From Methanobacteriota archaeon (GTDB lineage Archaea > Methanobacteriota > Methanobacteria > Methanobacteriales > Methanobacteriaceae), in contig CAWBCJ010000018.1 of NCBI GenBank assembly GCA_963787255.1, positions 32,001-96,000 of the forward strand: a stretch of 64,000 bases of DNA, in the 5' to 3' direction. This document shows positions 17,932-40,799 of this stretch, piece by piece (the stretch's first letter is position 1; each line of letters opens with the position of its first letter). The position numbers and the translations under genes are program-made. Below the pieces are notes generated by a model. The model searched no databases and had not been told where the DNA came from. It was given only the letters and a program-made list of their open reading frames with translations.

Positions 17932-17965
17932 TTAATTGTACATTTAAATTAGATAATTATTTATA
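17932..17965 (+). promoter_or_regulatory. Palindrome-TATA element copy 1
   Basis: TTAATTGTACATTTAA-ATTAGATAATTA-TTTATA. Confidence 0.85.
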
Positions 17966-20889: not shown

Positions 20890-20923
20890 TTAATTGTACA
20901 TTTAAAATAAATAATTATTTATA
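20890..20923 (+). promoter_or_regulatory. Palindrome-TATA element copy 2
   Basis: TTAATTGTACATTTAA-AATAAATAATTA-TTTATA upstream of the MFS gene. Confidence 0.85.
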
Positions 20924-24047: not shown

Positions 24048-24081
24048 TTAATTGTACATTTAAAATAGATAATTATTTATG
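24048..24081 (+). promoter_or_regulatory. Palindrome-TATA element copy 3
   Basis: TTAATTGTACATTTAA-AATAGATAATTA-TTTATG. Confidence 0.85.
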
Positions 24082-25036: not shown

Positions 25037-25052
25037 TTAATTGCACATTTAA
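25037..25052 (+). promoter_or_regulatory. Palindrome element copy 4 (orphan, no downstream TATA)
   Basis: TTAATTGCACATTTAA. Confidence 0.6.
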
Positions 25053-25080
25053 ACCAAAAAAAATAAAAACTATTTGTTAA

Positions 25081-25593: not shown

Positions 25594-25656
25594 ATTTTTT
25601 CACCTAATTTTTATAAAATACATTAATTATTATATCTAAACAATCTTATTTAAGTT

Positions 25657-25690
25657 TTAATTGTACATTTAAAATAAATAATTATTTATA
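25657..25690 (+). promoter_or_regulatory. Palindrome-TATA element copy 5
   Basis: TTAATTGTACATTTAA-AATAAATAATTA-TTTATA. Confidence 0.85.
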
Positions 25691-25712
25691 TTAAATTTAA
25701 ACAGTATTATAC

Positions 25713-26303: not shown

Positions 26304-26374
26304 ATTTTCTTAAGATTAAAAAAAAGATATTCAAGATAGATTTAAATAATAAATTAATTAAAAGGAGTGGTATT

Positions 26375-26590
26375 ATGCCAGATTTAGGACCATTAGGAAG
26401 AGGCGGAGCTAGAAGAAGAACAAGAAGAAGGGTGATGGCAATGAATGAAATGACCAAGCCACAAGAACCATCCAGAGAAACTGAAACTCCTATTAAATCA
26501 GATAACTCAGATAAATTAAAGCAATTAGCAAAACTATTAAGGAATAAAGGAGTAATAACCGAAGAAGAGTATGACTTGCTATTCGACTAA
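26375..26590 (+). CDS. Small protein with Arg-rich N-terminus and SHOCT domain
   Basis: GGARRRTRRRV; KLKQLAKLLRNKGVITEEEY. Confidence 0.8.
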   Translation: MPDLGPLGRGGARRRTRRRVMAMNEMTKPQEPSRETETPIKSDNSDKLKQLAKLLRNKGVITEEEYDLLFD

Positions 26591-26640
26591 ACATTTTTTA
26601 AAGTAATGAATTTATTCTTTTTTACAAGATGTGATATACT

Positions 26641-27120
26641 ATGCAGAAAAAAGAAAGCGCATTGATCATTATAGTTCTCGGTTTAATTGTTTTGGCTTTT
26701 CCTGTTTTAGGAGTAATCCCATTTAGCTTGATTACTGGATTTATAGTATCATTTTTGGGTATAGGACTACTATTTACAGGTTTGGCATTAAGAAGAGAAG
26801 ATGCAACTAGGGGAATTTTGGGAATAATTTTAGGAATTATAGTCCTAATTCTAGGTATAGGCTTTATTGTTAATCCGGCCCTATTCAGCTTTGTAGCTGC
26901 ATTATTCGTATTTATTGCAGGTTTATTCCTGGTAGGGATAGGAATTGCAACCATTATTGGTAATTTTGGTGGAGATATTAGATCCGGTGCAGTTGCTTTG
27001 GTTTTAGGTATAATTTACTTGATTATAGCTACATTGGTATCTGATCCAGCAGTTTTAGGTACTTTAATAGGTTTATGGCTTTTAATTACTGGATTTTTAA
27101 TGCTGTTCCAGAAAGACTAA
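26641..27120 (+). CDS. HdeD/DUF308-family membrane protein
   Basis: Close paralog of 29609..30088 (LGLIVLAFPVLGVIP; LIGLWLLITG). Confidence 0.8.
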   Translation: MQKKESALIIIVLGLIVLAFPVLGVIPFSLITGFIVSFLGIGLLFTGLALRREDATRGILGIILGIIVLILGIGFIVNPALFSFVAALFVFIAGLFLVGIGIATIIGNFGGDIRSGAVALVLGIIYLIIATLVSDPAVLGTLIGLWLLITGFLMLFQKD

Positions 27121-27290
27121 AAATTCAACAACTCTTTTTTAAAACTTTTTGGAATATGTGAAAGATGAGGGGATAACTTAATTTTTTTTAAGAATGTATT
27201 TAATATACTTGCTATATTAAGCGATAGATAGTGATGATAAATACTATGAAACCATATTTTTTAAAGATTAAGCTTACGGAGTGAAATCTA

Positions 27291-27986
27291 ATGTCTGAAT
27301 TATTTAATTTATTATCAGTAGTAGTGCCTACAGCATTAGTCGCTGCTTTAAGCCCTACCAGTTTTGCTGTGATGATAATGTTAATGTCTTTGTCTAAAAA
27401 ACCAAAAACTAGTGGTCTCGGGTTTTTAGCAGGATCTTCAATAATTATATTATTGGCAGCTTTATTAGGACTTGTTGCTGCAGAAGGAGCATCTTTTGTA
27501 GCTAGTACTGAAATTAACTTCCTTCCAGCATGGATAGATGTAATTTTAGGAGTTATAATACTTTATTTTGGCATTAAAACCACTTTTAAGAAAGATAATG
27601 AAGCTGATGAAAAAAAATTAGAAAATCGTCTGAAAGATAAATATACTACTTTAGGATTTTTTGGCAGTGCCTTATTAGCAATGGGTCTTTTTGCTTTAAA
27701 TTTAATCACCACAATTTTGGTGTTTTTTGCTAGCAACCAAATAGCAGCTTCTAGTGTAAATTGGATGGGTAAAACGATTACGTTAATTTTACTAGTGACC
27801 ATAACCCTCTTATTAGTGGAAATACCATTAATGATATACTTTTTAGTTCCTCAAAAGGCGGATAATATTCTTTCAAATTTAAATACATGGATTCAAAAAA
27901 GAGGGCATTACTTAACTGCAGGTTTAGTCATTATAATAGGGATATATATACTTTTTGAAGGGTTAAATGAGTTAAATTTGATTTAA
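27291..27986 (+). CDS. GAP/Sap-family (LysE-like) membrane protein
   Basis: ALVAALSP, GFLAG, LNTWIQKRG pattern; about 6 TM. Confidence 0.75.
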   Translation: MSELFNLLSVVVPTALVAALSPTSFAVMIMLMSLSKKPKTSGLGFLAGSSIIILLAALLGLVAAEGASFVASTEINFLPAWIDVILGVIILYFGIKTTFKKDNEADEKKLENRLKDKYTTLGFFGSALLAMGLFALNLITTILVFFASNQIAASSVNWMGKTITLILLVTITLLLVEIPLMIYFLVPQKADNILSNLNTWIQKRGHYLTAGLVIIIGIYILFEGLNELNLI

Positions 27987-28165
27987 ATAATAAATGTATG
28001 TGGAATTTAACTATAATGAATGATTGATAGAGAAAGGTAAATGTTTTCATTATTTTAACCCTAAAAAAATTTATTTTAAAGGATAACTATTATTCCCCTT
28101 AACTTTATTTTTATAATTTAATTGTTCTAAATAAGATTTCAATCTTAATTTTAGAAAGATATATT

Positions 28166-28199
28166 ATAATTGCACATTTAAAATAAATAATTATATTAA
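28166..28199 (+). promoter_or_regulatory. Palindrome-TATA element copy 6
   Basis: ATAATTGCACATTTAA-AATAAATAATTA-TATTAA upstream of the AI-2E gene. Confidence 0.75.
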
Positions 28200-28242
28200 A
28201 TTTGAACATTTATTATTAAATATTAAAAAAAGGAGGAAAAAA

Positions 28243-29241
28243 ATGATTAATGATTTTAAAATACCGCCCTTTCTTCGGCAAATTATTGTAATAGCCGTTA
28301 TTTTCGTTGCAGTAGTAGGATTAAAAATTACTGCCCCCATTATGAGCCTTATAATACTTTCAATTTTTCTTAGTCTGCTTTTCTACCCATTTTTGAAATG
28401 GCTAGAAAAAAAAGGTATATCTTATAATAAAGGCATGCTGATAACTCTTGTAGGAATCGCCGCTCTAGGTTTTGGGGTATTAGCTTTTATGGCACTTTCA
28501 TTATCCCAATTAATACAAGCAATCCCTAGTTTATCTATAAACTCTTCTGATTTTCTTGCACAATATGGAAATCAAATAATTGAATTTATTGTCACCAATA
28601 TACCTATAGAAAATGTAAAAGGACTCATTGCCGATGGGACTTTCATCATATTTGCGGTCATATTCCTGGTTTTTGAACTTCCCCAAATAAAAAACAGACT
28701 CGTAAAAGGATTAGGTGCAGATAACCCTACCTTGAATAAAGCTTTTGCTCTTGTTAGCACCTTCATCAAATACTTTATAATTAGAGTTAAAGTAAACTTA
28801 ATTTATGGTATAGGTGTTGCAGGTGTTCTCTTTATATTTGACATTAACTTTGCAATACTATGGGGTTTATTAACATTTATACTTGGATTTATTCCATATT
28901 TGGGTATTATGATAGCAGCAATACCCCCTATACTAGTAGCATGGGGTAAGTATGGGATACAAGGAGCCATAATAATGGGAATTTTCTTTGTAATAATCAA
29001 TACCATTGTAGAAAGCTATATATTCCCTAGATTAACTGGAAAAGGCCTTCAAATGTCAATTTATGTAGTATTTGCTGCACTATTTGTATGGGGTTGGATT
29101 TTAGGGCCTGTTGGATTTTTCATTGGTATTCCTTTAACCCTGATTATAATAAGATATCTTGAAAACTTTGATGAAACTCGATGGTTGGCCTTAATCATGA
29201 CCAGTGGCGAGGAAGAGGATATTAAGAAAAAGAAATCATGA
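28243..29241 (+). CDS. AI-2E family transporter
   Basis: FILGFIPYLG, ESYIFPRLTGKGL, WGWILGPVGFFIGIPLT. Confidence 0.92.
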   Translation: MINDFKIPPFLRQIIVIAVIFVAVVGLKITAPIMSLIILSIFLSLLFYPFLKWLEKKGISYNKGMLITLVGIAALGFGVLAFMALSLSQLIQAIPSLSINSSDFLAQYGNQIIEFIVTNIPIENVKGLIADGTFIIFAVIFLVFELPQIKNRLVKGLGADNPTLNKAFALVSTFIKYFIIRVKVNLIYGIGVAGVLFIFDINFAILWGLLTFILGFIPYLGIMIAAIPPILVAWGKYGIQGAIIMGIFFVIINTIVESYIFPRLTGKGLQMSIYVVFAALFVWGWILGPVGFFIGIPLTLIIIRYLENFDETRWLALIMTSGEEEDIKKKKS

Positions 29242-29608
29242 AATAGATAAGGAAAACATGAGAAGCGAAATAGTTCGGGTTTAGGTCTTATAATTGGTTA
29301 GGGTTTTTTTACAACGAATAACCAAGATCAAGATCCCAGGCATAATTCTACTTTTACCAGAGGTTACGATAGTAGATCTTTGCTTGGGCTCATAAATTCC
29401 AATTAACTGTTTTCAATTCTCTATTTCCTATGATAATGGTCGACCTCATGAATTAATATTTTTTTTATGGCTATAAACTCGATTTTATAAATAAAAATAG
29501 CAAATTAGCATAATGTAAGTTGTAATTTTTTAATAAATTCAAGCACATTAAAATAGACCCAAAGAAAAATAAAAAAATAAAAAGGGAAGTTTATTGAATA
29601 TTAATTTT

Positions 29609-30088
29609 CTATTCTTTCATGAAAAGCATTAATATTCCAGTTATTAAAAGCCATAGGCCAATTAGTACACCTAGAACCACAGGATTTGCGATGAAAGTTC
29701 CTACGATTACGTATAATATACCTATTATTAGTGCTACGACTCCATTCCATCTGCTACCGCCAGTTTTTGTGAATACTCCCATAATACCAGCAATAATTAG
29801 GAATAATCCAACGATCCAAACTATAAAACCAACTAACCAGCTGAATAGTCCAGGGTTGAAGATGAATCCAATACCAAGAACAAGGGCTATTATTCCCAAT
29901 ATAAGTTCCAGTATTCCCATAGCGAAACTTTCACCCATTTCAGCTATTCCGGCTAATAGAAGACCGATACCCAAAAATAGAACTATAAATCCAGTAAGTA
30001 AAGCTAATGGGATTACTCCTAAAACGGGGAAAGCCAAAACAATCAGCCCTAACACTATCAATATCAATGCACTGCCATTTTTTTCCAT
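29609..30088 (-). CDS. HdeD/DUF308-family membrane protein
   Basis: AGGAGG RBS; paralog of 26641..27120. Confidence 0.8.
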   Translation of the reverse strand: MEKNGSALILIVLGLIVLAFPVLGVIPLALLTGFIVLFLGIGLLLAGIAEMGESFAMGILELILGIIALVLGIGFIFNPGLFSWLVGFIVWIVGLFLIIAGIMGVFTKTGGSRWNGVVALIIGILYVIVGTFIANPVVLGVLIGLWLLITGILMLFMKE

Positions 30089-30255
30089 ATCTTTCTACCT
30101 CCTGATTTTTCTATATATATAGGTTAGATTTTGTTTATTATTAACTTTTTGTAGTTATCACTTCTTTATGCTTCATTTGAAATTGATCCGCCATTATTTT
30201 GCATGGTCTTAATTAAAAGTTAAATGAAAAAAAATAAATTAATTTTATATGTAAT

Positions 30256-30762
30256 TTAATCACTTATTTTTTGCTCTAAATCTTTTTTATCAAGTTTTAG
30301 CACAACATAGTCTCCAATTTGTTTTATATCAACATCAGAGATTATTAGATGCTTTTTATTAAATGCTCCACCAGTCGAGATAAGAACATTATGGATAAGA
30401 CATTTTTTAGGGTCAATAACCATATTTTCTATTTTACCCACAGTCATTGCATCTCCGGATACTACAGTTTTTCCTATTAAGTCTTTATAATGAAATTCAT
30501 TTTTCATTAAATCTTCAATTTTATCCACTTTTGATATTTTATCCATGTCATCTTTGCCTAATTTTAGCTGCACATAGTCGCCTATTTCTGCTAAATCATT
30601 TTCAGTTACTGCAAAATACTTCTTTTTTAAAGCACCTCCTTCAACTATTATTATTTTATCAACAAGGCACTCCTTTAAGTTCATTGCAAGATCAGCTATT
30701 TTACCTACTTCTACCGCTTCTTGGTTTAGTACTTTCATTCCAATAAAATCACTAGCATTCAT
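30256..30762 (-). CDS. Tandem (double) PRC-barrel protein
   Basis: Two repeats: FIGMKVL...VGKI...IGDYVQLK and LIGKTVV...VGKI...IGDYVVLK. Confidence 0.85.
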   Translation of the reverse strand: MNASDFIGMKVLNQEAVEVGKIADLAMNLKECLVDKIIIVEGGALKKKYFAVTENDLAEIGDYVQLKLGKDDMDKISKVDKIEDLMKNEFHYKDLIGKTVVSGDAMTVGKIENMVIDPKKCLIHNVLISTGGAFNKKHLIISDVDIKQIGDYVVLKLDKKDLEQKISD

Positions 30763-30799
30763 TATTTTACCTCCTAATTTAAAATCATATTTAATTACA

Positions 30800-31189
30800 T
30801 TATTTTTGTTTTTGAACTAAATTATTTATGGTTTCTTCTAATTCTATCATAATTTCTTCTAATTCATGTTTTTGATCCTGTACGACACACAGAGTATCTA
30901 AAAGCACATCCCTAAGCTCATTAGTGACGACAACACTCCACATCTCATCAAGATAGTTATATAGGGTAATTAAATCATCTGGGGACTCTTTATTAGATTC
31001 TATATCGTTTTTAACAAGCTTTACAAATGTAATAAGTTCAGCATCTAAATGAAACAGGTTTTCTACTAAAAAAGCTATTCGAGCTACAATTTCCTCCTGC
31101 AATTCCTTTTTCAATAACCCTTCAATAGGTATTTCCAATTTACCTAATGGTGATTCAATTTTTTTGCTATTTTCTTCCATCATATTCAT
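30800..31189 (-). CDS. Hypothetical acidic helical protein
   Basis: 129-aa ORF directly downstream of element copy 7; co-oriented with the PRC gene. Confidence 0.65.
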   Translation of the reverse strand: MNMMEENSKKIESPLGKLEIPIEGLLKKELQEEIVARIAFLVENLFHLDAELITFVKLVKNDIESNKESPDDLITLYNYLDEMWSVVVTNELRDVLLDTLCVVQDQKHELEEIMIELEETINNLVQKQK

Positions 31190-31235
31190 TTCCTAATTTT
31201 AATTAAACTATGATGAATTGTATATACTCTTAATT

Positions 31236-31269
31236 AATAAATAATTATCTATTTTAAATGTACGATTAA
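31236..31269 (-). promoter_or_regulatory. Palindrome-TATA element copy 7 (reverse orientation)
   Basis: Reverse complement reads TTAATCGTACATTTAA-AATAGATAATTA-TTTATT. Confidence 0.8.
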
Positions 31270-31361
31270 ATAAGAGGTTAATACAAGTTAAAATCTTCCT
31301 GTAATGATGGAAAGTGTTATAAACCTATGGTAGCAAATAATGACTAACAATTTGGAATTAA

Positions 31362-32740
31362 TTGGAAGAACTCCTAAAATTTGATGATATGACAAATAAA
31401 ACAAAAAATAAAGTTTCTAATCTTGAATTAGGTTTAAATAAAGATGCTGAAAAAATAAAAAGGTTAGAAACTACCCTAAAAGAGATTAAAAATAAATTTG
31501 ATGAAGCACAGTCAATTGCACAGTTTGGTTTTTGGGAAATAGATCCAGTAACTTTAAAATCCAACTTGGACTGAAGGAATTTATAAAATTGCTGGTTTAG
31601 AACCTAAAAATGGACAGCTCAAATATTATGATCTAAAAGAAATTATACACCCTGAAGATTGGGATCTTTTTTATAATGCCAAACAAACTGTAATTACAAC
31701 AGGAAAAGATGTTGAAATTGATATAAGAATGATAAGACCAGATAGTTCTATACGTTATGTTCATGTTATTGCAAAACCAAAAAATGATGAAAATGGAAAA
31801 GTTGTAGGTGTAAGGGGTACAGCTCAAGATATCACTGATTTAAAAAGAATTGAAAATCGTTTAAAAGAGTCAGAGACATTTTACAAGACTCTTTTTGAAA
31901 ATACAGGGACTGCAAGCATTATCGTTGATGAAGATACAACCATATTAATGGCTAATACACAGTTTGAAAACTTTTCAGGTTATTCTAAAGAAGAAGTAGA
32001 AGGTAAAATGAGCTGGAAAGAGATGGTCTTAAAAGAAGATCTGGAAATGATGGAAAAGTATCATTATATGCGTAGAAATGATATGGAAACTCCACCTGAA
32101 AATTATGAAGCTCAATTAATAGATAAAGAAGGCAATATCAGGATTGTTTTAATTAATGTGGCTATGATTCCTGGAACAAAAAGGAGCATAGCTTCTCTTC
32201 TTGATTTAACAGAACGTAAAGAGATTGAAAAAGAATTGGCAGACAGTGAAAGAAGATATAGGTATATAGTTGAAAAAGCTACTGCAGGAATGTTTATTTT
32301 AGATAAAAATGGTATAATCAAATATTTAAATGAGCATATGGCTCAAATGCTGGATTATACAAAAAATGAAATGTTAGAAAGACATATAAAAAGTTTTGTC
32401 GATGAAGAAGAAGACTTTTTGTAGGTCTAGAAAACCATTTGAAATCCAAACAGAACGATATAATTGGTTTAAATTTTTAGATAAGGAAGGAAATGTATTT
32501 TGGTCAAATTTAACAGTTTCACCAATTTTCAATTCTAAAAAGGAATATACTGGATTGCTTGGAATTGTATCTGATGTTAATATGCAGAAAGGATTAGAAG
32601 AAGCATTTTTAGAAAGAGAAGAAATATTCACAGATATTATTTATGATATGATGGAAATGCTCAATAATATTGCAAATGACAAAAATAAATCTGAATTCAA
32701 TGAAAAAGTATCTACTCATAAAAATTTGGATAATAATTAA
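31362..32740 (+). CDS. Multi-PAS sensor protein with no kinase or output domain (frameshifts near 31565 and 32420; start uncertain)
   Basis: AQSIAQFGFWE / WTEGIYKI...IHPED...RMIRPDSSIRYV...GTAQDIT; second PAS ending LLDLTERK; third ending GIVSDVN; no H-box or HATPase before the stop. Confidence 0.8.
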
Positions 32741-32803
32741 TTTTATATACCTTTTAAATATATTTATAGTACATAAATGTTAGATTATTAAAAGGTTATT
32801 ATT

Positions 32804-33940
32804 ATGGAAGAAGCAAATTTAGAAATTATGAATGATCCTTATTTTAAAAATTTTATAAAAAGTAGAAGGCTCTCTGAATCAACTGAAAGAGTATATACTG
32901 GAAGGTTAAGATCTTTTTTTGATTTTGTAGGTAAAAATCCGTCTGAATTAATTAAAGAAGCTCAAAAAGAAAGCAGACGAAAAATAGATGAATATTTCCA
33001 TGATTACATAGAAAATCTGAAAAAAAGTGGAAAATCATCGAATACCATCATTAATCGAGTAGATACTGTTAAAGCATTTTATAATGAGTATGATATTGAT
33101 ACAGAAAGTATAAATCGTATAATATCTCCTGAAACGGATAATTTAACTCCTAACAAGATTATATCTCAAGATCAGATTAAGGAAGCTCTTGAATTAAGTA
33201 GCTTAAGGGATAAAGCTATTATTTTGCTTCACATGTCTTCAGGTATGGAAGCCACCGAATTAAGATATCTAACTTATGGGGATTTTATTAATTCTATTGA
33301 AGAATACATAGATTTAAAGCCTGAAGAAAGATTTAATGTGAATAAAATAGCAGATAAGCTTTTTAAAATGGATGAAGTTGTTGGAACCTGGAAAATAGAA
33401 AAAAATAGGACTGGAAAACCTTATGTCACTTTTAACAGTCCGGAATCAACTAAGGCTATCTTAAGCTATTTAATAGATAGAGAAAGGAAAAATAAACCTA
33501 TTAAATCACTAAAAGATCCACTTTTTGTTAATTCCCAAAATCAAGCCTTAAATGTTTCTGCTCATGGTTCTATTTTTAAACGTGTGAATAATAGGGCTAA
33601 TTTTGGTTATTTAACTAAAAAAAGAAGATTTTTTTCTTCAACAATGCTTCGAAAGTATTTTAAAACTAAATTATATGAATCTGGAGTAGATGAAAAGATA
33701 GTAAACGCTATTTTAGGTCAAAAATTGGATATGAATATAGATTATCATTCAGATGCTGAAATAGCTGTTCTTAAAGATAAATATCTTGACGCATTAGGAA
33801 ATTTATCCTTAGAAAAAGCTAATAAAGAAACAGTGTCCAGTGAAGAGTATAAAAAGCTTATTAAAAAGCTTAATGAGAAAGATAAAGAATTAGAAGAAAT
33901 TAAAAAACATTTAAACCATATAAAACAAATCATTGAGTAA
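32804..33940 (+). CDS. Tyrosine recombinase/integrase-fold protein with degenerate active site
   Basis: SAM-like N-terminus (LSESTERVY; KSSNTIINR); LRDKAIILLHMSSGMEATELRYL box I; STMLRKYF; ILGQKLDMNIDY box II; C-terminal coiled coil. Confidence 0.85.
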   Translation: MEEANLEIMNDPYFKNFIKSRRLSESTERVYTGRLRSFFDFVGKNPSELIKEAQKESRRKIDEYFHDYIENLKKSGKSSNTIINRVDTVKAFYNEYDIDTESINRIISPETDNLTPNKIISQDQIKEALELSSLRDKAIILLHMSSGMEATELRYLTYGDFINSIEEYIDLKPEERFNVNKIADKLFKMDEVVGTWKIEKNRTGKPYVTFNSPESTKAILSYLIDRERKNKPIKSLKDPLFVNSQNQALNVSAHGSIFKRVNNRANFGYLTKKRRFFSSTMLRKYFKTKLYESGVDEKIVNAILGQKLDMNIDYHSDAEIAVLKDKYLDALGNLSLEKANKETVSSEEYKKLIKKLNEKDKELEEIKKHLNHIKQIIE

Positions 33941-34193
33941 GAAATAATTAATTTCATTATTTTCAATGATTTAATATTCATTTTTATCCATATTAACGCA
34001 AAATATTATTCACTGTAGCTAAGACTTATAGGACGTATTAATTCTTGCTTCTTTAATTTAAAAATAGTTATTTAAAAGGTTTGTTTTTTTTAGTTAATTA
34101 GGTTATGATTTTTTTTTATTAATCTTTTTAAGGTAACCACAAAAAATTATATGTATTAATTCCTTCAACAAAGTTTAGTGGAGGGTTAAAAGA

Positions 34194-34916
34194 ATGGAAA
34201 ATGCCATTGAAATATCATCTTTAACCAAGGAATTTGGAGACTTTAAGGCTTTAAATGATTTAAACCTTAAGGTGAAAAAAGGGGAAATTTATGGGTTACT
34301 CGGACCGAATGGGGCTGGAAAAACCACTGTTATCAAGGTATTATGCGGTCTTTTAGAGCCTTCCTCTGGCGAAGCATGTGTACTTGGAAATAAGATTCCT
34401 GATAAAAATATTTCTTCTCGTATTGGTTATATGCCTCAAGAGACTGCACTTTATGTTGGTTTAACTGTGCATCAAAATATGGAGTTTTATGGTAATTTAT
34501 TTGGCATTAAAAAGGATAAGTTCATTGAAAAAGAAAAGGAACTTCTCCAATTTGTAGACCTTTACGACTGGAGAAATGAACTTGTTCAAAACTTAAGTGG
34601 TGGAATGAAGCACAGGGCATCACTTGCCTGCACATTAATACACGAGCCAGAACTTTTATTTTTAGATGAACCAACTGTAGGGGTTGATCCTGAGCTTAGA
34701 ATTTCATTTTGGGATTATTTCAATAAATTAAAGGGTGAAGGAAAAACTATTTTGATTACAACTCATTATATGGACGAAGCAAGAAGGTGCGATAGAGTTG
34801 GATTTATGAATTATGGAAAACTCATTGCGGAAGGCACGCCCCAGGAACTTCTTCATCAGGCAGGAACTGATTCACTTGAAGATGCATTTTTAAAATTTTC
34901 AAGAGAGGAGAAATAA
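34194..34916 (+). CDS. ABC-2 type transporter ATP-binding protein
   Basis: GPNGAGKTT, LSGGM, LFLDEPT, TTHYMDEA. Confidence 0.95.
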   Translation: MENAIEISSLTKEFGDFKALNDLNLKVKKGEIYGLLGPNGAGKTTVIKVLCGLLEPSSGEACVLGNKIPDKNISSRIGYMPQETALYVGLTVHQNMEFYGNLFGIKKDKFIEKEKELLQFVDLYDWRNELVQNLSGGMKHRASLACTLIHEPELLFLDEPTVGVDPELRISFWDYFNKLKGEGKTILITTHYMDEARRCDRVGFMNYGKLIAEGTPQELLHQAGTDSLEDAFLKFSREEK

Positions 34917-34919
34917 AAT

Positions 34920-36059
34920 ATGAAACTTTACAGGGTTCTTGCTGTTACACGCAGGGTTTTCAGCGACATAAGGAATGATAAACGCACTCTGGCACTTGTT
35001 TTTGTGGCCCCTATATTTGCAATGTTTGTATTTGGCCTTGCTTTCAGCGGAGATGTTGAAAATGTTCATGTAATCGTTGTAAACCATGATAAAGGATTTA
35101 CCGTTCCTGGAGGAAATTTTACATCTCTTTCAGATGAGATAATATCTAATCTGGATCAAAACACGTTGGATATTACGTATATGGATAGTAATGAACTCGC
35201 TGTTGATCAAGTTGAAAAAGGTAAAGCTTATGCAGTTATAATCTTTCCAGAAAAATTTACGGAGAATGTTTATACAAAAGTTAGAAATCCTAACTCTTCA
35301 GTAAACACCCAAATTACTATAAGAGCAGATGAAAGTGTTGTTAACATTAAAAATGCCATATATGGTGCAGTAACTGATGCACTTACCACAACATTGAATG
35401 AGGAGGGATTTAAATCTCCAATTACAATTAACTCATATGCAGTTTATGGAAGTAATGCACAGTTCATTGATTTCTTTGTCCCGGGAATAATGGCTTTTGT
35501 TGTTTACCTTTTAACCACACTACTTACACTTATCACATTTGTGGGAGAGCGAGTTAACGGTACTTTGGAACGTCTTCTAGCAACTCCTTTAACAGAAGGA
35601 GAAATTGTAGCAGGTTATGGAATAACATTCAGTATACTGGGCACAATACAGGCTGCATTACTTTTAATAATAGGCATTCTAGTTTTCAACATAATGGTTG
35701 TTGGAAATGTAATTTATGCATTCATTACAATTGCTCTTTTAGCCATTGTATGTCAATCATTGGGAATACTACTTTCTAGTCTTGCCAAAAGAATTGAACA
35801 GGCAATTCAGTTCCTGCCATTCGTTATTTTACCTGCATTCTTACTTTCGGGTATTTTTTGGCCAATAGAGGCTATTCCTGTATGGCTCAGGCCTTTATCT
35901 TACCTTGTTCCTCCAACATATGCTGTAGATGCTAATAGGGCTGTAATGCTTAAAGGTTGGGGACTGAATATGATATGGCCAGATATAGTAGCATTGATTC
36001 TTTTCGCTATTGTCTTTCTAGCACTGGCAGTCTGGTCATTAAAGCGTAAAGAGAGTTAA
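34920..36059 (+). CDS. ABC-2 type transporter permease
   Basis: FFVPGI, ERVNGTLERLLATP, LSGIFWPIE. Confidence 0.93.
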   Translation: MKLYRVLAVTRRVFSDIRNDKRTLALVFVAPIFAMFVFGLAFSGDVENVHVIVVNHDKGFTVPGGNFTSLSDEIISNLDQNTLDITYMDSNELAVDQVEKGKAYAVIIFPEKFTENVYTKVRNPNSSVNTQITIRADESVVNIKNAIYGAVTDALTTTLNEEGFKSPITINSYAVYGSNAQFIDFFVPGIMAFVVYLLTTLLTLITFVGERVNGTLERLLATPLTEGEIVAGYGITFSILGTIQAALLLIIGILVFNIMVVGNVIYAFITIALLAIVCQSLGILLSSLAKRIEQAIQFLPFVILPAFLLSGIFWPIEAIPVWLRPLSYLVPPTYAVDANRAVMLKGWGLNMIWPDIVALILFAIVFLALAVWSLKRKES

Positions 36060-36151
36060 AATTTAGTGAAGATATTTTTTTTGTCTATTTTTATGTTATT
36101 TAGTTGCTAATTAGAAAAGATTTAAATATTTTAAAAGAAGGATTAAATTAC

Positions 36152-36307
36152 ATGAAGACTGCAAAATTAATTGTATACTTATGCGCGGCTGTACTGGTAA
36201 TATTAGGTGTTTACAGCTTGCTTATCACTAAAGATATTTATTCAGGCATCATATGGACAGTTATAGGTATATTTTTCTTTATTTTAGGAACAATAAAGGT
36301 TAAATAA
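36152..36307 (+). CDS. Small two-helix membrane protein
   Basis: AAGGA RBS before ATG 36152; hydrophobic 51 aa. Confidence 0.55.
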   Translation: MKTAKLIVYLCAAVLVILGVYSLLITKDIYSGIIWTVIGIFFFILGTIKVK

Positions 36308-36312
36308 TATTT

Positions 36313-37218
36313 TTATTTAATAGCATAGGGATTATAAAAAAGCCTTCTAAATCCTAAATAAATTAAAAGTTTATTTTCTATAATTATTTCTCTTTTTTTA
36401 AGAAATATTCGGCGAATCAGGTCTCCAAGACCTCCTCCAGTAATTACATCCATTACAAAATCTCCAAAATAAGGATTAGGGATTTCAAGCTTCTCTTTCA
36501 TGAATTTTTTTAAGTTATTTCTTCTTATAAATGCTATTAACAGTGATGAAAGAACAAAAAGAAGCAGCACACCTAAAAAGCTTCCAATATTTGCACCAAT
36601 ACCCGAAATATTTCCTAATACTCCTCCAAAAAGTGCATATGATATTCCAAGCCCCACGGCGAATGAATGGTTCCCGACTTCACCCATCATTATTTTTCCC
36701 ATGTAATCTAATGGAGCATAGCCGATACATGCGGCTAAAACTATCATTGGAATGAAATAACCTCCATAACCCGCTAAAAACATTGAAGAAATTACAATAA
36801 TACACATTATAATAACTGTAGAACAAGCAGAGCCCGGCTGCATATCTGAAATGTTAAATGGTTGTATCATCAACGCGATTAGTATGGATGCAGGTCCAAA
36901 ATAAAAAAATCCTAATACAGCAACAATCAGCATTCCTATGCCTCTTGAAAGTTGTCCAATCTCAAAAGGCAAACCTTTAATTCTTTTCCTACCTAAAACA
37001 TCATCAATTAAAGCAAAAATACCAATTACAGCAATAAGATAACTGAAAGGTTGATTTATAAATAATATCAGTACTATAAACGGTGCAATACCCACAGCTC
37101 GTGGTGTTCCACCTCTTATGGTGGTATATAAACTGCTGCCGCTTTTTTGAATAATCCATTTAAACAGTAATGTCAAAATGGCAGATATTAGAAATGCAAG
37201 AATGATTTCTGTATACAT
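36313..37218 (-). CDS. MraY/WecA-like polyprenyl-phosphate transferase (cell-wall biosynthesis)
   Basis: GTPRAVG, ALIDD, NISDMQPG, KIMMGEVG motifs; multi-TM. Confidence 0.8.
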   Translation of the reverse strand: MYTEIILAFLISAILTLLFKWIIQKSGSSLYTTIRGGTPRAVGIAPFIVLILFINQPFSYLIAVIGIFALIDDVLGRKRIKGLPFEIGQLSRGIGMLIVAVLGFFYFGPASILIALMIQPFNISDMQPGSACSTVIIMCIIVISSMFLAGYGGYFIPMIVLAACIGYAPLDYMGKIMMGEVGNHSFAVGLGISYALFGGVLGNISGIGANIGSFLGVLLLFVLSSLLIAFIRRNNLKKFMKEKLEIPNPYFGDFVMDVITGGGLGDLIRRIFLKKREIIIENKLLIYLGFRRLFYNPYAIK

Positions 37219-37285
37219 TAATTCACCTATTATAAAATAGAAAAAGAAGGTATATTAAATTATGTTAAATTATTGAAATTCAAAT

Positions 37286-37972
37286 CTATAATTTATCTAA
37301 TACATTTATAAACTGACTAGCATCAGAGTACTTTTTATCGTATGAGTCCTTTTTATAAGTTTCATATACCATAGCACGAATTCCTGCATTTGAAATTGGT
37401 TTTGTAACGTATAATGGACTTGATCCCCCTGGAGAATATATTTTTAAAAATGGCATCTTCTGGGTAATATTTTTTAAATAATTAATTGTTTCATTATCCT
37501 TGGATATAGGATATATGAATCGGGGGTATTTATAACCGGTTTCCTTCCATAAATCTTCATGAATATCTACAACAAGTTTGGGTTTGGTTTTTATAACGTC
37601 AGGCACCACGATTTTATTAGCTATTAACTGACCGTTCATTCTACCTATAGTGAAATGCAAAGGGCTTTTTGTTATATGAATCTTGTAAAGGATGTATTTT
37701 TTAGATAAAAATCGTGATTTATCCTTTAATGCAGCTGCAGTAGCATTATGAAACTCAAATTCACGTGGATGAACGCCGGTAATTATTGCAATGGTTTCTT
37801 CAGAATTCTGATTTCCATAAACTTCTTTTTCAGCCCATCCGTAGCTTTTATTTCCTAGAATCTCTACTGAACTTTTATTTTCTAAAAAATTAGCATTCCA
37901 ACTTGCTTCAACAATTGAGAAAGCTAAAATGAGAAATAGAGTAAATAGAATAATTCCATTTATCTTTTTTAT
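37286..37972 (-). CDS. Exported zinc carboxypeptidase (M14-like) protein with apparent ATA start
   Basis: Frame of ORF 37286..37660 stays open to 37972; GGAGG-N7-ATA; signal-like N-terminus; ITGVHPRE and VVDIHE motifs. Confidence 0.65.
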   Translation of the reverse strand: MKKINGIILFTLFLILAFSIVEASWNANFLENKSSVEILGNKSYGWAEKEVYGNQNSEETIAIITGVHPREFEFHNATAAALKDKSRFLSKKYILYKIHITKSPLHFTIGRMNGQLIANKIVVPDVIKTKPKLVVDIHEDLWKETGYKYPRFIYPISKDNETINYLKNITQKMPFLKIYSPGGSSPLYVTKPISNAGIRAMVYETYKKDSYDKKYSDASQFINVLDKL

Positions 37973-38119
37973 TTATATTCCTCCAAAAAATATTAAAATA
38001 TCGTATCTATTCAGGATTTAATAAGTTTTGCTTTTTAAATTTTCAATATAAAAGAGTCAATAAATTGATTATATTTTAATAAACGCAAAAAAAATGATTC
38101 TGAAATTAACATTACATTT

Positions 38120-39343
38120 TTAAGGCCCAAAATGCCCTTCATCTGTTTGAACAATCACGGTTTCCAGACCAGTATTGTTTAAAATTTCTTTAATTTCAAT
38201 CATTTCCTTCACTGATGGTCTAATAAGACCTTTTCTTCTGAATTCTGGCCTATAATCAAGTACGCAAACTTGAACATCAGATTTGAGGTTAAAAATCATT
38301 TTTCCCATTTTTTCTATTTCTTCTATTGATATAAGCGCAGCATTGTAGGGTATTCCAATTCCCAAAAATACATCTTTAAAATAATTATCAATTATGTATT
38401 GAACCGCATCCCATGAAGTTTTAAGGTACTTTTCTGCAAGCTTTTCATCATTTAAACCGGTTACGTCCATGTAAGTTGAAACGTTTAAAGCTTTTAAATC
38501 TATTCCAATATCTGTCATTCCAGCTATTACCAATTCATCTATGTAATCTGGAGTTAATATTGTTCCATTAGTATCAACATGGATATTAACGCTATTATCT
38601 TGACTTTTAATGGATTTAATTATTTCAAGTAGCCATTTTCTATTCAATGTACTTTCGCCGCCGGAAATTGTTATTCTATCCACTTCGTAATTTTCTTTTA
38701 AACCTAAAAGTATCTGCGAAGCTTCATAAGGTTCAATTAAATGGCCCCCTGCTGTGAAAGCTGTCTTAAAATTCTGACACTGTGGACATCTAAGATTACA
38801 GCCATGGGTAAATCCAACGACTTCAACAGGGCCTTTAATACTCTTAACCCAGTAAGGCGTTCCTACTCCACCTACAGAATGAACTCCAAAACCACTTACT
38901 ACCCTTAAAACAGGAAATTTTTCTTCATTTAACTCTGTTTCTATTTCCATTCCATCTCTTAATGGGGTAACACATGCTGGAGATATTCTTCCATTTACCT
39001 TAACAATGCATGCCCAACATCCACCGCAGTCGCAGGGTACAAACAAACCATTTTCTTTTTGTTTAAAATTGGGGAATTTACTTATGTGTACACCGGCAGC
39101 ATTTACAGCATCTTTAACAGTTCCAGAAGCCAATATTTCTTTATCATTTACAAAAACTTTTATTCTTTCATCTAGAGATTCTGCTAAGACTAATGCTTCC
39201 TCTGGACAGGCTATTGTACATGCACCGCATCCAATGCACCGACGTGTTTCTATAGCTCCCTTTACATTTCCTGCAGGACAATCTACAATGTTTTTACATA
39301 TATCACATCCACTGCATTTTTCCATGATTAGTTTTGCAGTCAT
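38120..39343 (-). CDS. Radical SAM protein (PFL-activating-enzyme-like) with N-terminal ferredoxin and 2Fe-2S-like domains
   Basis: CxxCxxCxxxCP; CDCGGCWAC...PAC; GCNLRCPQCQN; ISGGE; DTNG. Confidence 0.85.
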   Translation of the reverse strand: MTAKLIMEKCSGCDICKNIVDCPAGNVKGAIETRRCIGCGACTIACPEEALVLAESLDERIKVFVNDKEILASGTVKDAVNAAGVHISKFPNFKQKENGLFVPCDCGGCWACIVKVNGRISPACVTPLRDGMEIETELNEEKFPVLRVVSGFGVHSVGGVGTPYWVKSIKGPVEVVGFTHGCNLRCPQCQNFKTAFTAGGHLIEPYEASQILLGLKENYEVDRITISGGESTLNRKWLLEIIKSIKSQDNSVNIHVDTNGTILTPDYIDELVIAGMTDIGIDLKALNVSTYMDVTGLNDEKLAEKYLKTSWDAVQYIIDNYFKDVFLGIGIPYNAALISIEEIEKMGKMIFNLKSDVQVCVLDYRPEFRRKGLIRPSVKEMIEIKEILNNTGLETVIVQTDEGHFGP

Positions 39344-39383
39344 ATTATTCCCCGATTTGAATTATTTATATAAATTAGTTTTA

Positions 39384-40445
39384 TTATCTAACACTATACC
39401 TTAATAGCCCTGCTATTCCACCTAAAGCTCCAAGTTGCTTCCCGCCTTCATGTTCACTGCTTACAACCATCACTTTACCTCCTGTATTTTCTACAAGGTT
39501 CATGATTTTTTCTATTTCTTCCTTGCGGACCATATTATCTAGTACAAGTAAATTTTCCACGGCACCGGCATTGGAAGCATTTTCTACATCTGATTTCCCA
39601 TAAGCCACCATATTAGAAGACTTTCCAATTTCTTCTAAAACTTTATTCATTAGCCTCATTTCTTGAGCAATACGACCCTCTGCAGCCATCTGTTCGATTG
39701 TGCCTTTTTTTAACACTTCCTGTATTCCCACACGCCCTCCGGTCCCTGTATTTTCTACACCTGATATTTTAGCTAATTTGGGGTATTTTTCAGCTAAAAA
39801 ATCGTAAAAGTCACCTTTAGTAAATCCAGGGCCTGCAATAACGATACCTTGAATGTCTTCAAAAGTCTGGAGTGTTTTTGCTACTTCATTATAGAAATTG
39901 GTTATATTTTTACCTCTATCCTTTTGTATATTCATTTTTCCAGATATTCCACCTATAATGGGCCCATAATAGTCTATTCCATACTGTTTTATAATTCCTA
40001 AATCGGCCACATCGTCTTCAATGGCTACAATAATTGCTGAAGGTTTTTTAGAAGAATCTACAGCAGTTTTAAGCCTTTTAATTGCCCATCTTGACCATTT
40101 TTCCTTTGTTATTTTCACTGGAATTTTAAGCTTTAAATCAATGGTGTGGTGAGTTCCTAGGGGAACTAGATCCTCAGGACCTTTTTCTATTATCCCTGTT
40201 GCCCTTAGTTTACCTGTGTATTTATGAAAGCTTATGCTTTCCACTCTGATTCCCATAAAAAATGTTTTTTTTATACCTCGATCACTTCTAAGCCGTTCTC
40301 CCGTTGAATCCTGTATTCTACGGGTTGTTCTGGATGATACTAAATCTCCAGGTTCGATTATATGTGATAAATGCCATAAATCGTCCAGAGTTTCTGGAAC
40401 AAGTTCAATGAGTCCTCTTTTAGTATCTTGATGAGCAATGCGCAT
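39384..40445 (-). CDS. pelA: mRNA surveillance protein Pelota
   Basis: PETLDDLWHL, AGPGF, GGIAGLLRY. Confidence 0.95.
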   Translation of the reverse strand: MRIAHQDTKRGLIELVPETLDDLWHLSHIIEPGDLVSSRTTRRIQDSTGERLRSDRGIKKTFFMGIRVESISFHKYTGKLRATGIIEKGPEDLVPLGTHHTIDLKLKIPVKITKEKWSRWAIKRLKTAVDSSKKPSAIIVAIEDDVADLGIIKQYGIDYYGPIIGGISGKMNIQKDRGKNITNFYNEVAKTLQTFEDIQGIVIAGPGFTKGDFYDFLAEKYPKLAKISGVENTGTGGRVGIQEVLKKGTIEQMAAEGRIAQEMRLMNKVLEEIGKSSNMVAYGKSDVENASNAGAVENLLVLDNMVRKEEIEKIMNLVENTGGKVMVVSSEHEGGKQLGALGGIAGLLRYSVR

Positions 40446-40799
40446 TTAATACACCATTTTAATCTTTAAATCTAATATTTTATCAATTTATTCAAAACTT
40501 TAGCGAATTATAAAAATCAATTTATTATTCTTTTCTATATTAAATAGCAATTAAATAATTTATTATTTTATTATATTAAATTGCAGAACATTTTCAATAG
40601 TATTATTTCTAGTTATTCAAAGTCAGCTTTGCTTATACATTTTGACTTGTTTATCCTCATGTATTCTTTTTCATTCATTGTTGTTTCAAAACTCTGTAAA
40701 TTAAAACAATGGAAAGAGAAAAAATATTATTTAGTTTATTAATATGATATTATATTGAGGGATTGTAAATAAATAGGGAAAGAAACAGAGATTTTTTAT

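Follow-up and report, generated by a model that had tools for sequence, protein, structure and literature searches.

An integrase-fold gene and its neighbourhood

The window, by which we mean the whole stretch of 64,000 nucleotides analysed here, carries an integrase-fold ORF of 378 amino acids that starts with ATG and, in line with the sequence-only reading of this DNA, is free of internal stops (Table 1). It is directly preceded by a gene for a PAS-only sensor and lies in a chromosomal, syntenic setting, among neighbours that are transporter and membrane genes and include no genes of mobile elements. A repeat search of the window, in which the only tRNA lies at 5005-5078, revealed no att-like pair bracketing the ORF, bearing out the earlier remark that neither an att duplication nor phage or plasmid genes are nearby. 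No classical transcription-factor domain was detected in 25 scans of neighbouring ORFs; a TrmB-like gene adjoins the orthologue of the ORF in a related genome (G057), and a 57% homologue of it is found on another contig of the source genome (G000). An ESM Atlas search with the 129-aa neighbour gave no usable match. The motif CATAAATGTTWGATT from the ORF's own promoter was considered as a mark of a regulon and rejected, being enriched neither in the window (10 matches vs 8.9 expected) nor genome-wide (48 vs 37 for the reversed control).

Table 1. Features of the ORF, its protein and the surrounding part of the window (r., residues of the ORF protein).
Feature	Position	Strand	Remarks
PRC-barrel gene	17512-17760		opposite strand to element copy 17933..17964
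32-nt element, exact pattern match	17933..17964	+	DUF3566-like gene 18009-18371 downstream
32-nt element, exact	20891..20922	+	MFS transporter gene 20986-22530 downstream
32-nt element, exact	24049..24080	+	between 170-aa gene (23466-23978, -) and DUF5518 gene (24285-24680, +)
32-nt element, exact	25658..25689	+	DUF308 gene 25722-26264 downstream
32-nt element, 3' end diverged	28167..28198	+	AI-2E-family transporter gene 28243-29241 downstream; end of 16-nt core to gene start 60 nt
32-nt element, 1 mismatch	31237..31268	-	divergent gap between 129-aa gene (30800-31189, -) and PAS gene
PAS-only sensor gene	31389..32740	+	directly upstream of ORF
ORF promoter region	32741..32803	+	conserved in 7/7 clade A loci aligned
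Putative TATA-like TTTTATATA	32741-32749	+	ORF promoter; named from its sequence
Conserved CATAAATGTTAGATT	32772-32786	+	ORF promoter
Putative ribosome-site-like AAAGG		+	ahead of ORF ATG; named likewise
Integrase-fold ORF	32804..33940	+	
E149 codon GAA	33248..33250	+	Arg-I column; Glu in 73/73 clade A
R202 codon AGG	33407..33409	+	XerA catalytic Lys column; Arg in 73/73 clade A
T280 to R283	33641..33652	+	His-II column to Arg-II; Thr 73/73, Arg 73/73 clade A
Q306 to Y314	33719..33745	+	His/Trp-III column to Tyr; Gln 72/73 clade A
Inverted repeat, two perfect arms of 10 nt with 26 nt between them	33927..33972	+	spans stop codon, T-rich stretch after; mostly conserved in G057; may mark where the transcript ends
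N-terminal core-binding domain	r. ~12-107		Pfam and AlphaFold2 model
Former catalytic domain	r. ~122-335		Pfam and AlphaFold2 model
Flexible linker	r. 339-345		AlphaFold2 model
Terminal amphipathic helix	r. 347-377		AlphaFold2 model

The protein belongs to the integrase fold, with a match of PF00589 (Phage_integrase) to residues 123-305 at 40.1 bits (cut-off 27.1). The N-terminal binding domain that the earlier reading had described as kept is recognised by PF02899 (SAM-like domain; residues 13-94, 23.3 bits, cut-off 22.3) and by the two-domain fold of the AlphaFold2 model (mean pLDDT 87.5). The closest relatives of this model in structure are archaeal XerA chromosome-dimer resolvases (4a8e, Z 18.9; 5hxy, Z 17.2), followed by Cre and XerH (Z ~14-15); XerA, Cre and XerH cover residues 7-337 with Z values of 14-19. 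XerA, which has the same two-domain architecture, is also closest in sequence (profile E-values 8.8e-18 and 2.7e-16), but the ORF differs from it in the replacement of Arg-I, Lys, His-II and His-III, in an insertion of ~35 residues that follows the box I helix, and in an added C-terminal helix. The ORF accordingly scores only 71.8 bits against the XerA equivalog model NF040815 of NCBIfam (cut-off 220), which the true XerA of G000, on contig C26, matches with 353.7 bits. Genes of the ORF type carry the annotation 'tyrosine-type recombinase/integrase' or 'XerD' and would therefore be miscounted as mobile-element markers.

Catalytic residues, selection and descent

The motifs of the sequence-only reading are all present as it had placed them: SSGMEATE at residues 145-152, KNRTG at 200-204, STMLR at 279-283, LGQ at 304-306 and IDYH at 312-315. 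Three alignments (phmmer against XerA 4a8e, a family profile against 5hxy and 4a8e, and MAFFT with XerA of the same genome) uphold what that reading had aligned by eye, with E149 in the Arg-I column, T280 in His-II, R283 in Arg-II and Q306 in His-III. The lysine loop calls for one correction: in the XerA alignments the Lys column is occupied by R202 and not by K200, and the Lys of the ORF is therefore also substituted. Among E149, R202, T280, R283, Q306 and Y314, Arg-II is the only canonical residue. On the side of activity, Arg-II, K200 and one Tyr persist in the protein.

Residues were counted in 73 sequences of the ORF's own clade (clade A), 11 of clade B, two of clade B' and 35 catalytically complete relatives (clade C). 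The catalytic Lys is present in 33/35 of the complete relatives. Y314 lies 8 residues from the His-III column, one residue off register relative to the spacing of 9 found in XerA and in 33/35 complete relatives. When offsets of 5-12 residues after His-III were scanned, clade A had Tyr at +8 in 63 sequences, at +9 only in 4 and at +7 only in 1, the Tyr swapping with the neighbouring residue (YH/HY); no Tyr was present at these offsets in 5/73 clade A sequences and in 13/13 sequences of the sister clades (11 of clade B, 2 of clade B').

The weight of the individual substitutions differs. In Cre, several replacements of His-II and of Trp-III are tolerated (PMC2943603), and Thr and Gln in the ORF are therefore weak evidence alone. 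The earlier caution that methanogen integrases may have an atypical box I was well placed: Gly is usual at Arg-I in catalytically complete relatives (24/35 genomic and 7/10 virus-contig sequences), and box I alone is therefore no proof of inactivity. R154, five residues past the Arg-I column, was examined as a relocated Arg-I and rejected. It never varies in clades A and B and is found in 26/35 clade C sequences; of the nine that lack it, one has the canonical Arg, four have Arg one past the column and four have neither, and several viral-contig members also lack it, so that R154 is no clear substitute. For Cre, Tyr and Lys are given as the only residues strictly needed for >5% activity, R173A is described as devastating and no in vitro activity is reported for K201R (PMC2943603). 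The fixed changes of Lys to Arg and of Arg-I to Glu, together with the off-register or missing Tyr, strongly suggest from sequence that strand exchange has been lost in the clade of the ORF.

The ORF might still encode an active enzyme that recombines, inverts or nicks DNA by means of a non-canonical site made of Y314, R283, R154 and K200/R202. Such an enzyme could draw on the retained Tyr, Arg-II and several basic residues, and the complete relatives already dispense with a canonical Arg-I. We nonetheless consider it very unlikely, since the Lys to Arg change that is fixed in clade A abolishes Cre activity in vitro as K201R (PMC2943603), Glu stands in place of the phosphate-binding Arg in 73/73 sequences, the Tyr is off register, swapped or missing from the scanned offsets, and the Tyr-less sequences are equally conserved.

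All 73 distinct orthologues in clade A are full length, with identities down to 58%; spread over 58-94% identity, they are therefore not recent copies of one sequence. A search of metagenome contigs for nearer orthologues returned 5 loci, the best of them only 78% identical, and dN/dS (Nei-Gojobori) was therefore obtained from pairs with dS of 0.5-1.7. It was 0.136-0.219 in 35/36 orthologue pairs and 0.385 in the 36th, which is near-identical. Constraint is strongest in the former catalytic domain (0.10-0.17, vs 0.12-0.31 for the N-terminal domain). The ORF is under purifying selection, and the dN/dS comparison among orthologues that the earlier reading had proposed thus fell on the side of a selected gene. 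That the ORF is a functionless, decaying integrase remnant of a lost element might be read from the loss of its catalytic residues, from the patchy distribution of clade A (8/121 sampled Methanobacteriaceae genomes) and from the broken PAS gene next to it in this assembly, but this explanation is already contradicted by the full-length orthologues and their dN/dS of ~0.14-0.22, and we regard it as scarcely credible. The substituted residues are themselves invariant, the ORF's own promoter is conserved at all seven loci aligned, and none of the 12 indels listed, of 14 in contigs of related strains, falls inside the ORF.

The lineage of the ORF descends from integrases. Clades A, B and B' form a single branch (SH-aLRT 100 and 99.8 in two trees) that is nested among relatives with K-H-R-H-Y; in the more careful tree, the catalytically complete group requires 2 changes over the 5-95% range of bootstraps. 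The integrase family has matches in 91/121 genomes; the relatives with K-H-R-H-Y number up to 10 per genome and occur on 14 IMG/VR viral contigs. The ORF belongs to this family by homology and tree position, being 26-43% identical to clade C over ~98% of its length, and it has in common with the virus and element integrases of that clade the insertion, a helix at the C-terminus and the lack of a canonical Arg-I (usually Gly in clade C). The two differ in that clade C sequences on viral contigs keep Lys (10/10), HxxR (10/10), GH (9/10) and Tyr at +9 (10/10), and in that clade C integrases are multi-copy, have no PAS genes beside them (0/38 neighbours scanned) and lie where housekeeping genes adjoin ORFan or element genes (20 loci examined); neither these residues nor a mobile-element border is found for the ORF. 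A search for att sites as direct repeats in 60 kb beside three complete relatives (G075, G112 and G108) gave no convincing candidate, the longest exact match to the integrase-proximal border being 13-16 nt.

A promoter element and a PAS gene that accompany clade A

The window also contains repeated copies of a 32-nt element with the consensus TAATTGTACATTTAAAWTARATAATTATTTAT, the first half of which is a near-palindrome and the second half AT-rich and promoter-like. Eight matches were found in the window against 0.45 expected, and at least eight in 0/100 shuffles; genome-wide, the 6 matches with at most one mismatch all lie within 13 kb upstream of the ORF. The element precedes, at a fixed distance, at least six transcription units, with DUF308, DUF5518, DUF3566, MFS, AI-2E and PRC-barrel genes, encoding small membrane proteins and transporters. 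It is absent from the ORF's own promoter in the 7 clade A loci aligned. Its 16-nt core, used as a search pattern with one mismatch, matched 84/121 of the AT-rich genomes and was set aside as too permissive; the 32-nt pattern was therefore used instead.

This 32-nt pattern matches 7/121 genomes (reversed control, 0/121), five of which carry clade A and together hold 18 copies; the other two, G060 and G023, have no clade A member and one degenerate copy each, with 2-3 mismatches. Of the remaining three clade A genomes, G026 and G045 have a version of the element with a spacer one base shorter (G045 with one or two weak copies), and in G076 an exact 16-nt core lies on the same contig as the PAS gene. 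G053 has one copy only. Among 79 loci covering 545 kb, matches occurred at clade A loci only; orthologues of the MFS target gene (81-86% identity) in 4 same-genus genomes that lack the Int-like gene had no element upstream, and no viral contig contained an exact match to a 28-nt form. The element is thus co-distributed with clade A. The association could stem from common descent or from joint loss rather than from a regulator-operator pair, since both belong to one syntenic island in related genomes, and the element could be bound by a regulator encoded elsewhere, for example by the TrmB-like gene.

The elements are also where the ORF, if it were still an enzyme, would be expected to act, shuffling or duplicating units of element plus gene in the manner of an integron or shufflon. 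They are near-palindromic, occur in both orientations and flank small gene units, and the order and number of these units varies by genome: G057 has three tandem units of element plus DUF308 and a swapped order of SfLAP and AI-2E, and in G087 the PAS gene is separated from the Int-like gene by two others, one for DUF5518 and one for NIR_SIR. Against this stand the promoter-like spacing of the elements, with the start codon 35-81 nt away from the 16-nt core in most copies, their orientation, which is that of the downstream start codon, and the stability of the gene order between G000 and G057 over 14 kb (28243-42104). An integron likewise has a gene of tyrosine-recombinase fold beside short gene units with imperfectly palindromic repeats; at the ORF locus, in contrast, the repeats have a conserved sequence and are placed upstream of the genes at promoter distance instead of at their 3' ends, the catalytic set is incomplete, and the integron-integrase model TIGR02249 gives 21.2 bits against a cut-off of 265.

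The PAS gene co-occurs with the clade of the ORF. Orthologues of its last PAS module (at least 70% identity) were found in 6/121 genomes, all six with clade A, and in four of these 66-80 nt separate the PAS gene from the Int-like gene; in clade B, a GAF/PAS gene precedes the Int-like gene in 3/3 cases. Methanobacterium oryzae, as named in the source records, has an intact pair. In the present assembly, the reading frame of the PAS gene is disrupted twice, by single-base insertions in short homopolymer runs near 31563 and 32416, and the gene is lost or a remnant in G026 and G045, where the Int-like ORF is intact; a partnership, if any, is therefore dispensable. A complex prediction for the Int-like protein and the last PAS module of G057 (residues 392-579) returned 'no answer' with a score of 0.00, which speaks neither for nor against contact. 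P0096 was considered as a natural PAS-integrase fusion and discarded, as it joins half a PAS domain to Int-like residue 207 and has the look of a deletion product.

The protein could also bind DNA or other recombinases with a target other than the 32-nt element, either as an architectural protein or as a decoy subunit or inhibitor that occupies att sites or poisons the tetramers formed by related element integrases, in a form of defence against integration. Tyrosine recombinases assemble via C-terminal contacts, and the fold and C-terminal helix of the ORF are common to the element-borne integrases; the family is abundant among the Methanobacteriaceae, and the link between gene and element may be mere synteny. 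We hold this to be unlikely: G000 has no intact complete relative to be inhibited, with two fragments and XerA only, and the pairing with PAS or GAF genes in two diverged clades and the co-distribution of the element would be left unexplained.

A candidate regulator derived from an integrase

The sequence-only reading held that the ORF is selected for DNA binding rather than strand exchange. The dN/dS values and the 73 full-length orthologues support the selection, and DNA binding would be expected from the retained fold of two domains and from a repeated promoter element whose distribution follows that of the gene. We consider it probable, if by a small degree, that the ORF encodes a domesticated, non-catalytic integrase acting as a sequence-specific DNA-binding regulator, with the 32-nt element as its likely target and possibly a signal from the PAS protein. 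According to this model, the ORF would be a domesticated descendant of an integrase from a virus or mobile element of the Methanobacteriaceae, which would have lost the ability to cut and rejoin DNA and kept the clamp of two domains by which tyrosine recombinases hold on to DNA, reusing it for binding. The 32-nt element would be its most likely binding site, through which it would probably regulate the membrane and transporter island. The PAS-only protein, which has no output domain, may pass a signal to the ORF product, possibly by contact.

By analogy, the ORF product most likely works like the phage master repressors MrpR and SroF. MrpR (YopR) is described as having a tyrosine-recombinase fold and no recombinase activity, binding the repeated SPbeta element SPBRE and, in Table 3, lacking Arg-I, His-II and His/Trp-III while keeping its Tyr (PMC10516654), and SroF as a non-catalytic integrase-fold repressor with a 24-bp operator at multiple sites of the phage genome (bioRxiv 10.1101/2025.11.27.690993). 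MrpR thus resembles the ORF product in the missing Arg-I, His-II and His/Trp-III and in the presence of a Tyr. The ORF has no detectable sequence relationship to either protein (8% identity to MrpR and 15% to SroF), and their structural matches (8a0a, Z 12.2; 9rd5, Z 12.5; range 12.2-12.7) rank below ~30 entries of true recombinases; the ORF would therefore be an independent exaptation. MrpR and SroF are bacterial and borne by SPbeta-like Bacillus phages, and SroF is monomeric, whereas the ORF is archaeal and chromosomal, is paired with a PAS gene and ends in a helix suggestive of oligomers. A further parallel is TnsF of Tn6022-like Tn7 transposons, described as an inactive derivative of an active recombinase that selects target sites (PMC10293859). 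Like the ORF as we read it, TnsF is a dead recombinase reused for site-specific DNA recognition, but it has N-terminal zinc fingers and Tn7 transposition partners, neither of which was found at the ORF locus.

To our knowledge, the non-catalytic DNA-binding factors of tyrosine-recombinase fold documented so far come from a few bacterial mobile elements (MrpR/SroF, TnsF) and from the domesticated Cryptons of eukaryotes. Our literature search found no archaeal or chromosomal prokaryotic non-catalytic DNA-binding factor of the integrase fold, and none paired with a sensor. It is conceivable, though we think it unlikely, that a whole system of integrase plus recombination sites was exapted, in which the 32-nt elements would be former recombination sites of a cassette-shuffling or integrating element that now serve as operators under the control of a PAS/GAF sensor. 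If true, this would be a new archaeal signal-transduction pair, made of a sensor without output domain and an integrase-fold transcription factor, and the sister clade would do likewise for genes of adhesin-like surface proteins. If the model of a domesticated integrase acting as a regulator holds, the ORF would represent a new class of archaeal transcription factor and a partner for the numerous PAS/GAF proteins of methanogens that lack an output, and the series from active virus integrase through Tyr-bearing dead to Tyr-less dead proteins would allow the passage from enzyme to regulator to be studied.

Catalytic residues of the integrase-fold gene

The integrase-fold (Int-like) gene encodes 378 residues from an ATG start. 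As the sequence-only reading had stated, its frame is uninterrupted and all five motifs quoted there are found: SSGMEATE (residues 145-152), KNRTG (200-204), STMLR (279-283), LGQ (304-306) and IDYH (312-315). The protein matches the Pfam Phage_integrase model at 40.1 bits (cut-off 27.1), and the N-terminal binding domain that it was said to keep is recovered as a SAM-like core-binding domain above the Pfam cut-off; the protein falls far under every cut-off of the XerA, XerC/D and integron-integrase models of NCBIfam. The AlphaFold2 model (88 relatives; mean pLDDT 87.5) is a confident one: it has a helical N-domain joined to a catalytic-type domain, and beyond a disordered segment at 339-345 comes a long terminal helix (347-377). 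Its closest structures are archaeal XerA (4a8e, Z 18.9; 5hxy, Z 17.2), with Cre, XerH, IntI, Tn1549 Int and lambda Int next. The genome encodes a separate true XerA (353.7 bits), and its only other integrase genes are two fragments. One of its contigs, C17, starts with about 900 nt of G+C-rich ORFs unlike the remaining genome, followed by a 155-residue C-terminal integrase fragment (HRLR, LGQ, DAY) and a 325-residue ORF of unknown family; this contig may be chimeric or contaminated, and the stated contamination of the assembly is 4.57%. The Int-like stop codon falls within an inverted repeat whose 10-nt arms match perfectly; a T-rich stretch follows, and the repeat, mostly kept in the related genome G057, may be a transcript end.

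Coordinates of features in the window and at other loci
Feature	Location	Position	Strand
Int-like gene	window	32804-33940	+
PAS sensor gene	window	31389-32740	+
One-base insertion, A run	window	near 31563	
One-base insertion, T run	window	near 32416	
Inverted repeat across stop codon	window	33927-33972	
All element-core matches with at most one mismatch (C18:49933-63268)	window	17933-31268	
DUF308 genes on opposite strands	window	26640-27128; 29601-30089	
Contig C17 locus	L002	1-1413	
Three tandem element-DUF308 units (G057)	L041	4956-7045	
TrmB-like regulator gene (G057)	L041	10149-10895	-

The columns equivalent to the XerA active site were taken from three independent alignments (phmmer against P. 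abyssi XerA, the family profile against XerA 5hxy and 4a8e, and MAFFT against the genome's own XerA), and because all three agree, the earlier by-eye assignment of catalytic substitutions holds, with one correction: K200 of KNRTG does not stand in the catalytic-Lys column. R202 occupies that column, so the Lys too is replaced. Only the tyrosine and lysine of Cre are strictly required for more than 5% activity; its K201R mutant does not recombine in vitro and R173A has a devastating effect, while its His and Trp positions accept several substitutions (PMC2943603). On these data, the strongest signs that the Int-like protein is probably inactive are the Lys to Arg change, the Glu that occupies the phosphate pocket and the way the Tyr behaves across the family, the Thr and Gln at the His columns being weaker ones.

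Residues at the catalytic columns in the Int-like protein and in the four groups of its family
Column	Int-like protein	Group A (n=73)	Group B (n=11)	Group B' (n=2)	Group C (n=35)
Identity to Int-like protein		58-100%	46-51%	37-38%	23-43%
Arg-I	E149	E 73	G 11	S 2	G 24, A 3, R 3, S 3, P 1, K 1
Glu three residues past Arg-I	E152 (kept)				
Catalytic Lys (XerA GKG)	R202	R 73	K 11	K 2	K 33
His-II	T280	T 73	G 11	I, N	H 32
Arg-II	R283 (kept)	R 73	R 11	K 2	R 35
His/Trp-III	Q306	Q 72, H 1	Y 11	R, L	H 33
Tyr after His-III (XerA, +9)	Y314 (+8)	+8 in 63; +9 only in 4; +7 only in 1; none within 5-12 in 5	none	none	+9 in 33

Descent of the degenerate forms

Among 5.8 billion proteins searched, 105 relatives turned up; all those with an organism-level source name are from Methanobacterium or Methanobacteriaceae, and one is labelled Euryarchaeota only. 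Of 121 sampled genomes of the family, 91 hold a relative, and a single genome has as many as 10 matches. In an alignment of 122 distinct full-length sequences, with the genome's own XerA as reference, family members split into clade A (the Int-like gene and its orthologues), its Tyr-less sister clades B and B', and group C, the integrases of viruses and elements. Relatives from 14 viral-contig (IMG/VR) loci resemble group C: the ten translated (three duplicating the scores of locus L081 and one partial being omitted) have the Lys (10/10), HxxR (10/10), GH (9/10) and Tyr at +9 (10/10), with G 7, R 1, S 1 and A 1 at Arg-I. The caution that methanogen integrases can have an atypical box I was thus well placed, as the make-up of this column in group C and the viral relatives demonstrates: such a box is normal in this family, also in virus-borne, otherwise complete integrases, and clade A is set apart by having lost, in addition, the Lys, the two His and the register of the Tyr.

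Rooted on XerA, the family tree joins A, B and B' in one branch (SH-aLRT 100 over 71 rows; 99.8 after dropping three long-branch rows). A more careful tree gives 100/100 support to each of the three and places exactly two changes on the complete group over the 5-95% bootstrap range, its bootstrap being not fully settled. The A, B and B' branch sits within group C, which indicates that a single element-integrase lineage produced all degenerate forms. Group C genes (20 loci; 38/58 flanking ORFs scanned, those off the locus end and most under 100 residues excluded) have housekeeping genes on one flank (AdoMet synthetase, ribosomal protein S15, PheRS beta, GAR synthetase) and ORFans or element genes on the opposite one (DUF5906, ArdC-N, PIN), with no PAS domain among the 38 ORFs and no tRNA gene within 1.5 kb. 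Selection on the clade A orthologues, which the sequence-only reading had expected, is borne out by dN/dS values of 0.136-0.219 in 35/36 pairs of nine genes (0.385 at dS 0.064 in the remaining, closest pair), and dN/dS is lowest in the former catalytic domain (0.10-0.17, vs 0.12-0.31 in the N-domain).

A repeated promoter element and its distribution

A repeat scan showed that a sequence of about 34 nt recurs several times in the neighbourhood. Its 19-mer core, at up to three mismatches, occurs 8 times in the window (0.45 expected; 0/100 shuffles reach 8), and the 2.47-Mb genome has six matches at zero or one mismatch, all of them in the 13 kb ending at the PAS gene. Every copy is oriented toward a start codon 48-81 nt past the 16-nt core (220 nt for one copy), in many cases with a GGAGG-like ribosome site before it. 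The genes served are mutually unrelated: DUF3566-like, MFS transporter, DUF5518, DUF308, AI-2E transporter and a gene of 129 residues, after which PRC-barrel and DUF308 genes lie on that strand too. When 16 copies (six genomes plus a metagenome contig) are aligned, 18 columns are invariant and 5 almost so, and the similarity ends at the upstream edge. The 25 scans of ORFs located at 15.2-37.7 kb (17 Pfam and 8 NCBIfam, some ORFs in both) revealed no classical DNA-binding domain. The island grows through duplication of element-plus-gene units; in G057, each of three tandem units holds one 32-nt element and one 159-residue DUF308 gene, unlike the window, where a single element stands before the 129-residue gene and the PRC-barrel and DUF308 genes after it. 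Two DUF308 genes of the window are diverged paralogues on either side of the SfLAP and AI-2E transporter genes, forming two inverted repeats, of 291 nt and 124 nt, at about 70% identity. G057 also has a TrmB-like gene (248 residues) between the Int-like gene and an ABC transporter, missing at the corresponding site of the window (a 253-nt gap), with a 57% homologue on contig C25 of this genome.

With up to three mismatches the 32-nt pattern occurs in 7/121 genomes (reversed control, 0): in carriers of clade A, with six copies here, four in each of G057 and G087, three in G014 and one in G053, and in G060 and G023, which lack clade A and have one copy each at two to three mismatches. The remaining three clade A genomes belong to one genus; G026 and G045 have a version with a one-base-shorter spacer, and in G076 only the exact 16-nt core was seen, on the contig bearing its PAS gene. 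All four copies of G057 lie within 16.5 kb upstream of the Int-like gene and all four of G087 within 4.1 kb on both sides of it, while that of G053 is 0.8 kb downstream and that of metagenome contig L050 190 nt upstream; across 79 loci (545 kb), matches occur only in clade A loci. The element is absent before the MFS orthologues (81-86% identity) of four genomes that share the genus but lack the Int-like gene, and stands in front of the 72% identical MFS gene of G026, from another genus. Since this distribution is drawn from related genomes and one syntenic island, shared descent of gene and element is a live alternative to recognition of one by the other.

Neighbouring sensor genes and a candidate regulatory role

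Directly upstream of the Int-like gene, on the same strand, lies a PAS-only gene broken here by two one-base insertions. The extra base is missing in related-strain contigs (five at the T run, two at the A run; four coded runs), so the breaks are private to this genome or its assembly, and the split reflects either recent pseudogene formation or a homopolymer miscounted in assembly. It has three PAS domains, and its G057 orthologue four. Intact orthologues adjoin the Int-like gene in G057 and G053 and lie two genes off in G087; G045 keeps a 27-residue remnant and G026 has none. Orthologues of the last PAS module at 70% identity or more occur in 6/121 genomes, all among the eight with clade A, and the gap to the Int-like gene is 66-80 nt in four of the six. 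In the protein database the PAS neighbour belongs to a family with sharp bounds, made up of 61 clusters; in 23 of these the longest contig has exactly the length of that of a clade A cluster, which is only a proxy for a shared contig. A promoter-like region directly before the Int-like gene is conserved in 7/7 clade A loci, whether or not the PAS gene precedes. The 419-residue metagenome protein P0096 joins one half of the final PAS domain in frame to Int-like residue 207 (71% identity over 145 residues, clade A), which suggests a natural deletion spanning the pair.

All three clade B genes come after a GAF/PAS protein of about 1050 residues, whose last module is 38-42% identical to that of the clade A partner, and face large adhesin-like genes (DUF11, CARDB, Big_3_5; 846-1585 residues); the sensors of both clades lack an output domain. 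At these Tyr-less loci (L046 in G107, L047 on G057 contig 3, L048 in G040), the motif ATTATAyTAAATAAATGTArrCTTAT lies upstream of each clade B gene and elsewhere nearby, with 9 matches in 57 kb vs 11 in 480 kb of other loci.

Described integrase-fold proteins that bind DNA are MrpR, which lost the equivalents of Arg-I, His-II and Trp/His-III and kept the Tyr (PMC10516654), SroF of phi3T, both domains of which clamp a 24-bp operator (bioRxiv 10.1101/2025.11.27.690993), and TnsF, an inactivated derivative selecting a target site (PMC10293859). The residue-loss pattern of MrpR is the same as here, which makes it a close precedent, but the Int-like protein matches these families at Z of only 12.2-12.7 and 8-15% identity, which places it outside them; it is a parallel invention. 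In the portion consulted of a review of archaeal tyrosine recombinases, Methanobacteriales appear only for provirus att sites (PMC8371274), and a literature search covering main texts, largely from outside subscription journals, listed no archaeal degenerate integrase of this kind.

DNA binding, the target sequence, the direction of control (activation or repression), the oligomeric state and any contact between the Int-like and PAS proteins are inferences from these observations. Put most simply, an element integrase would have lost catalysis and been retained for its grip on DNA; the clade A protein would recognise the 32-nt element and thereby control an island of membrane and transport genes; and the neighbouring PAS sensor may modulate it.
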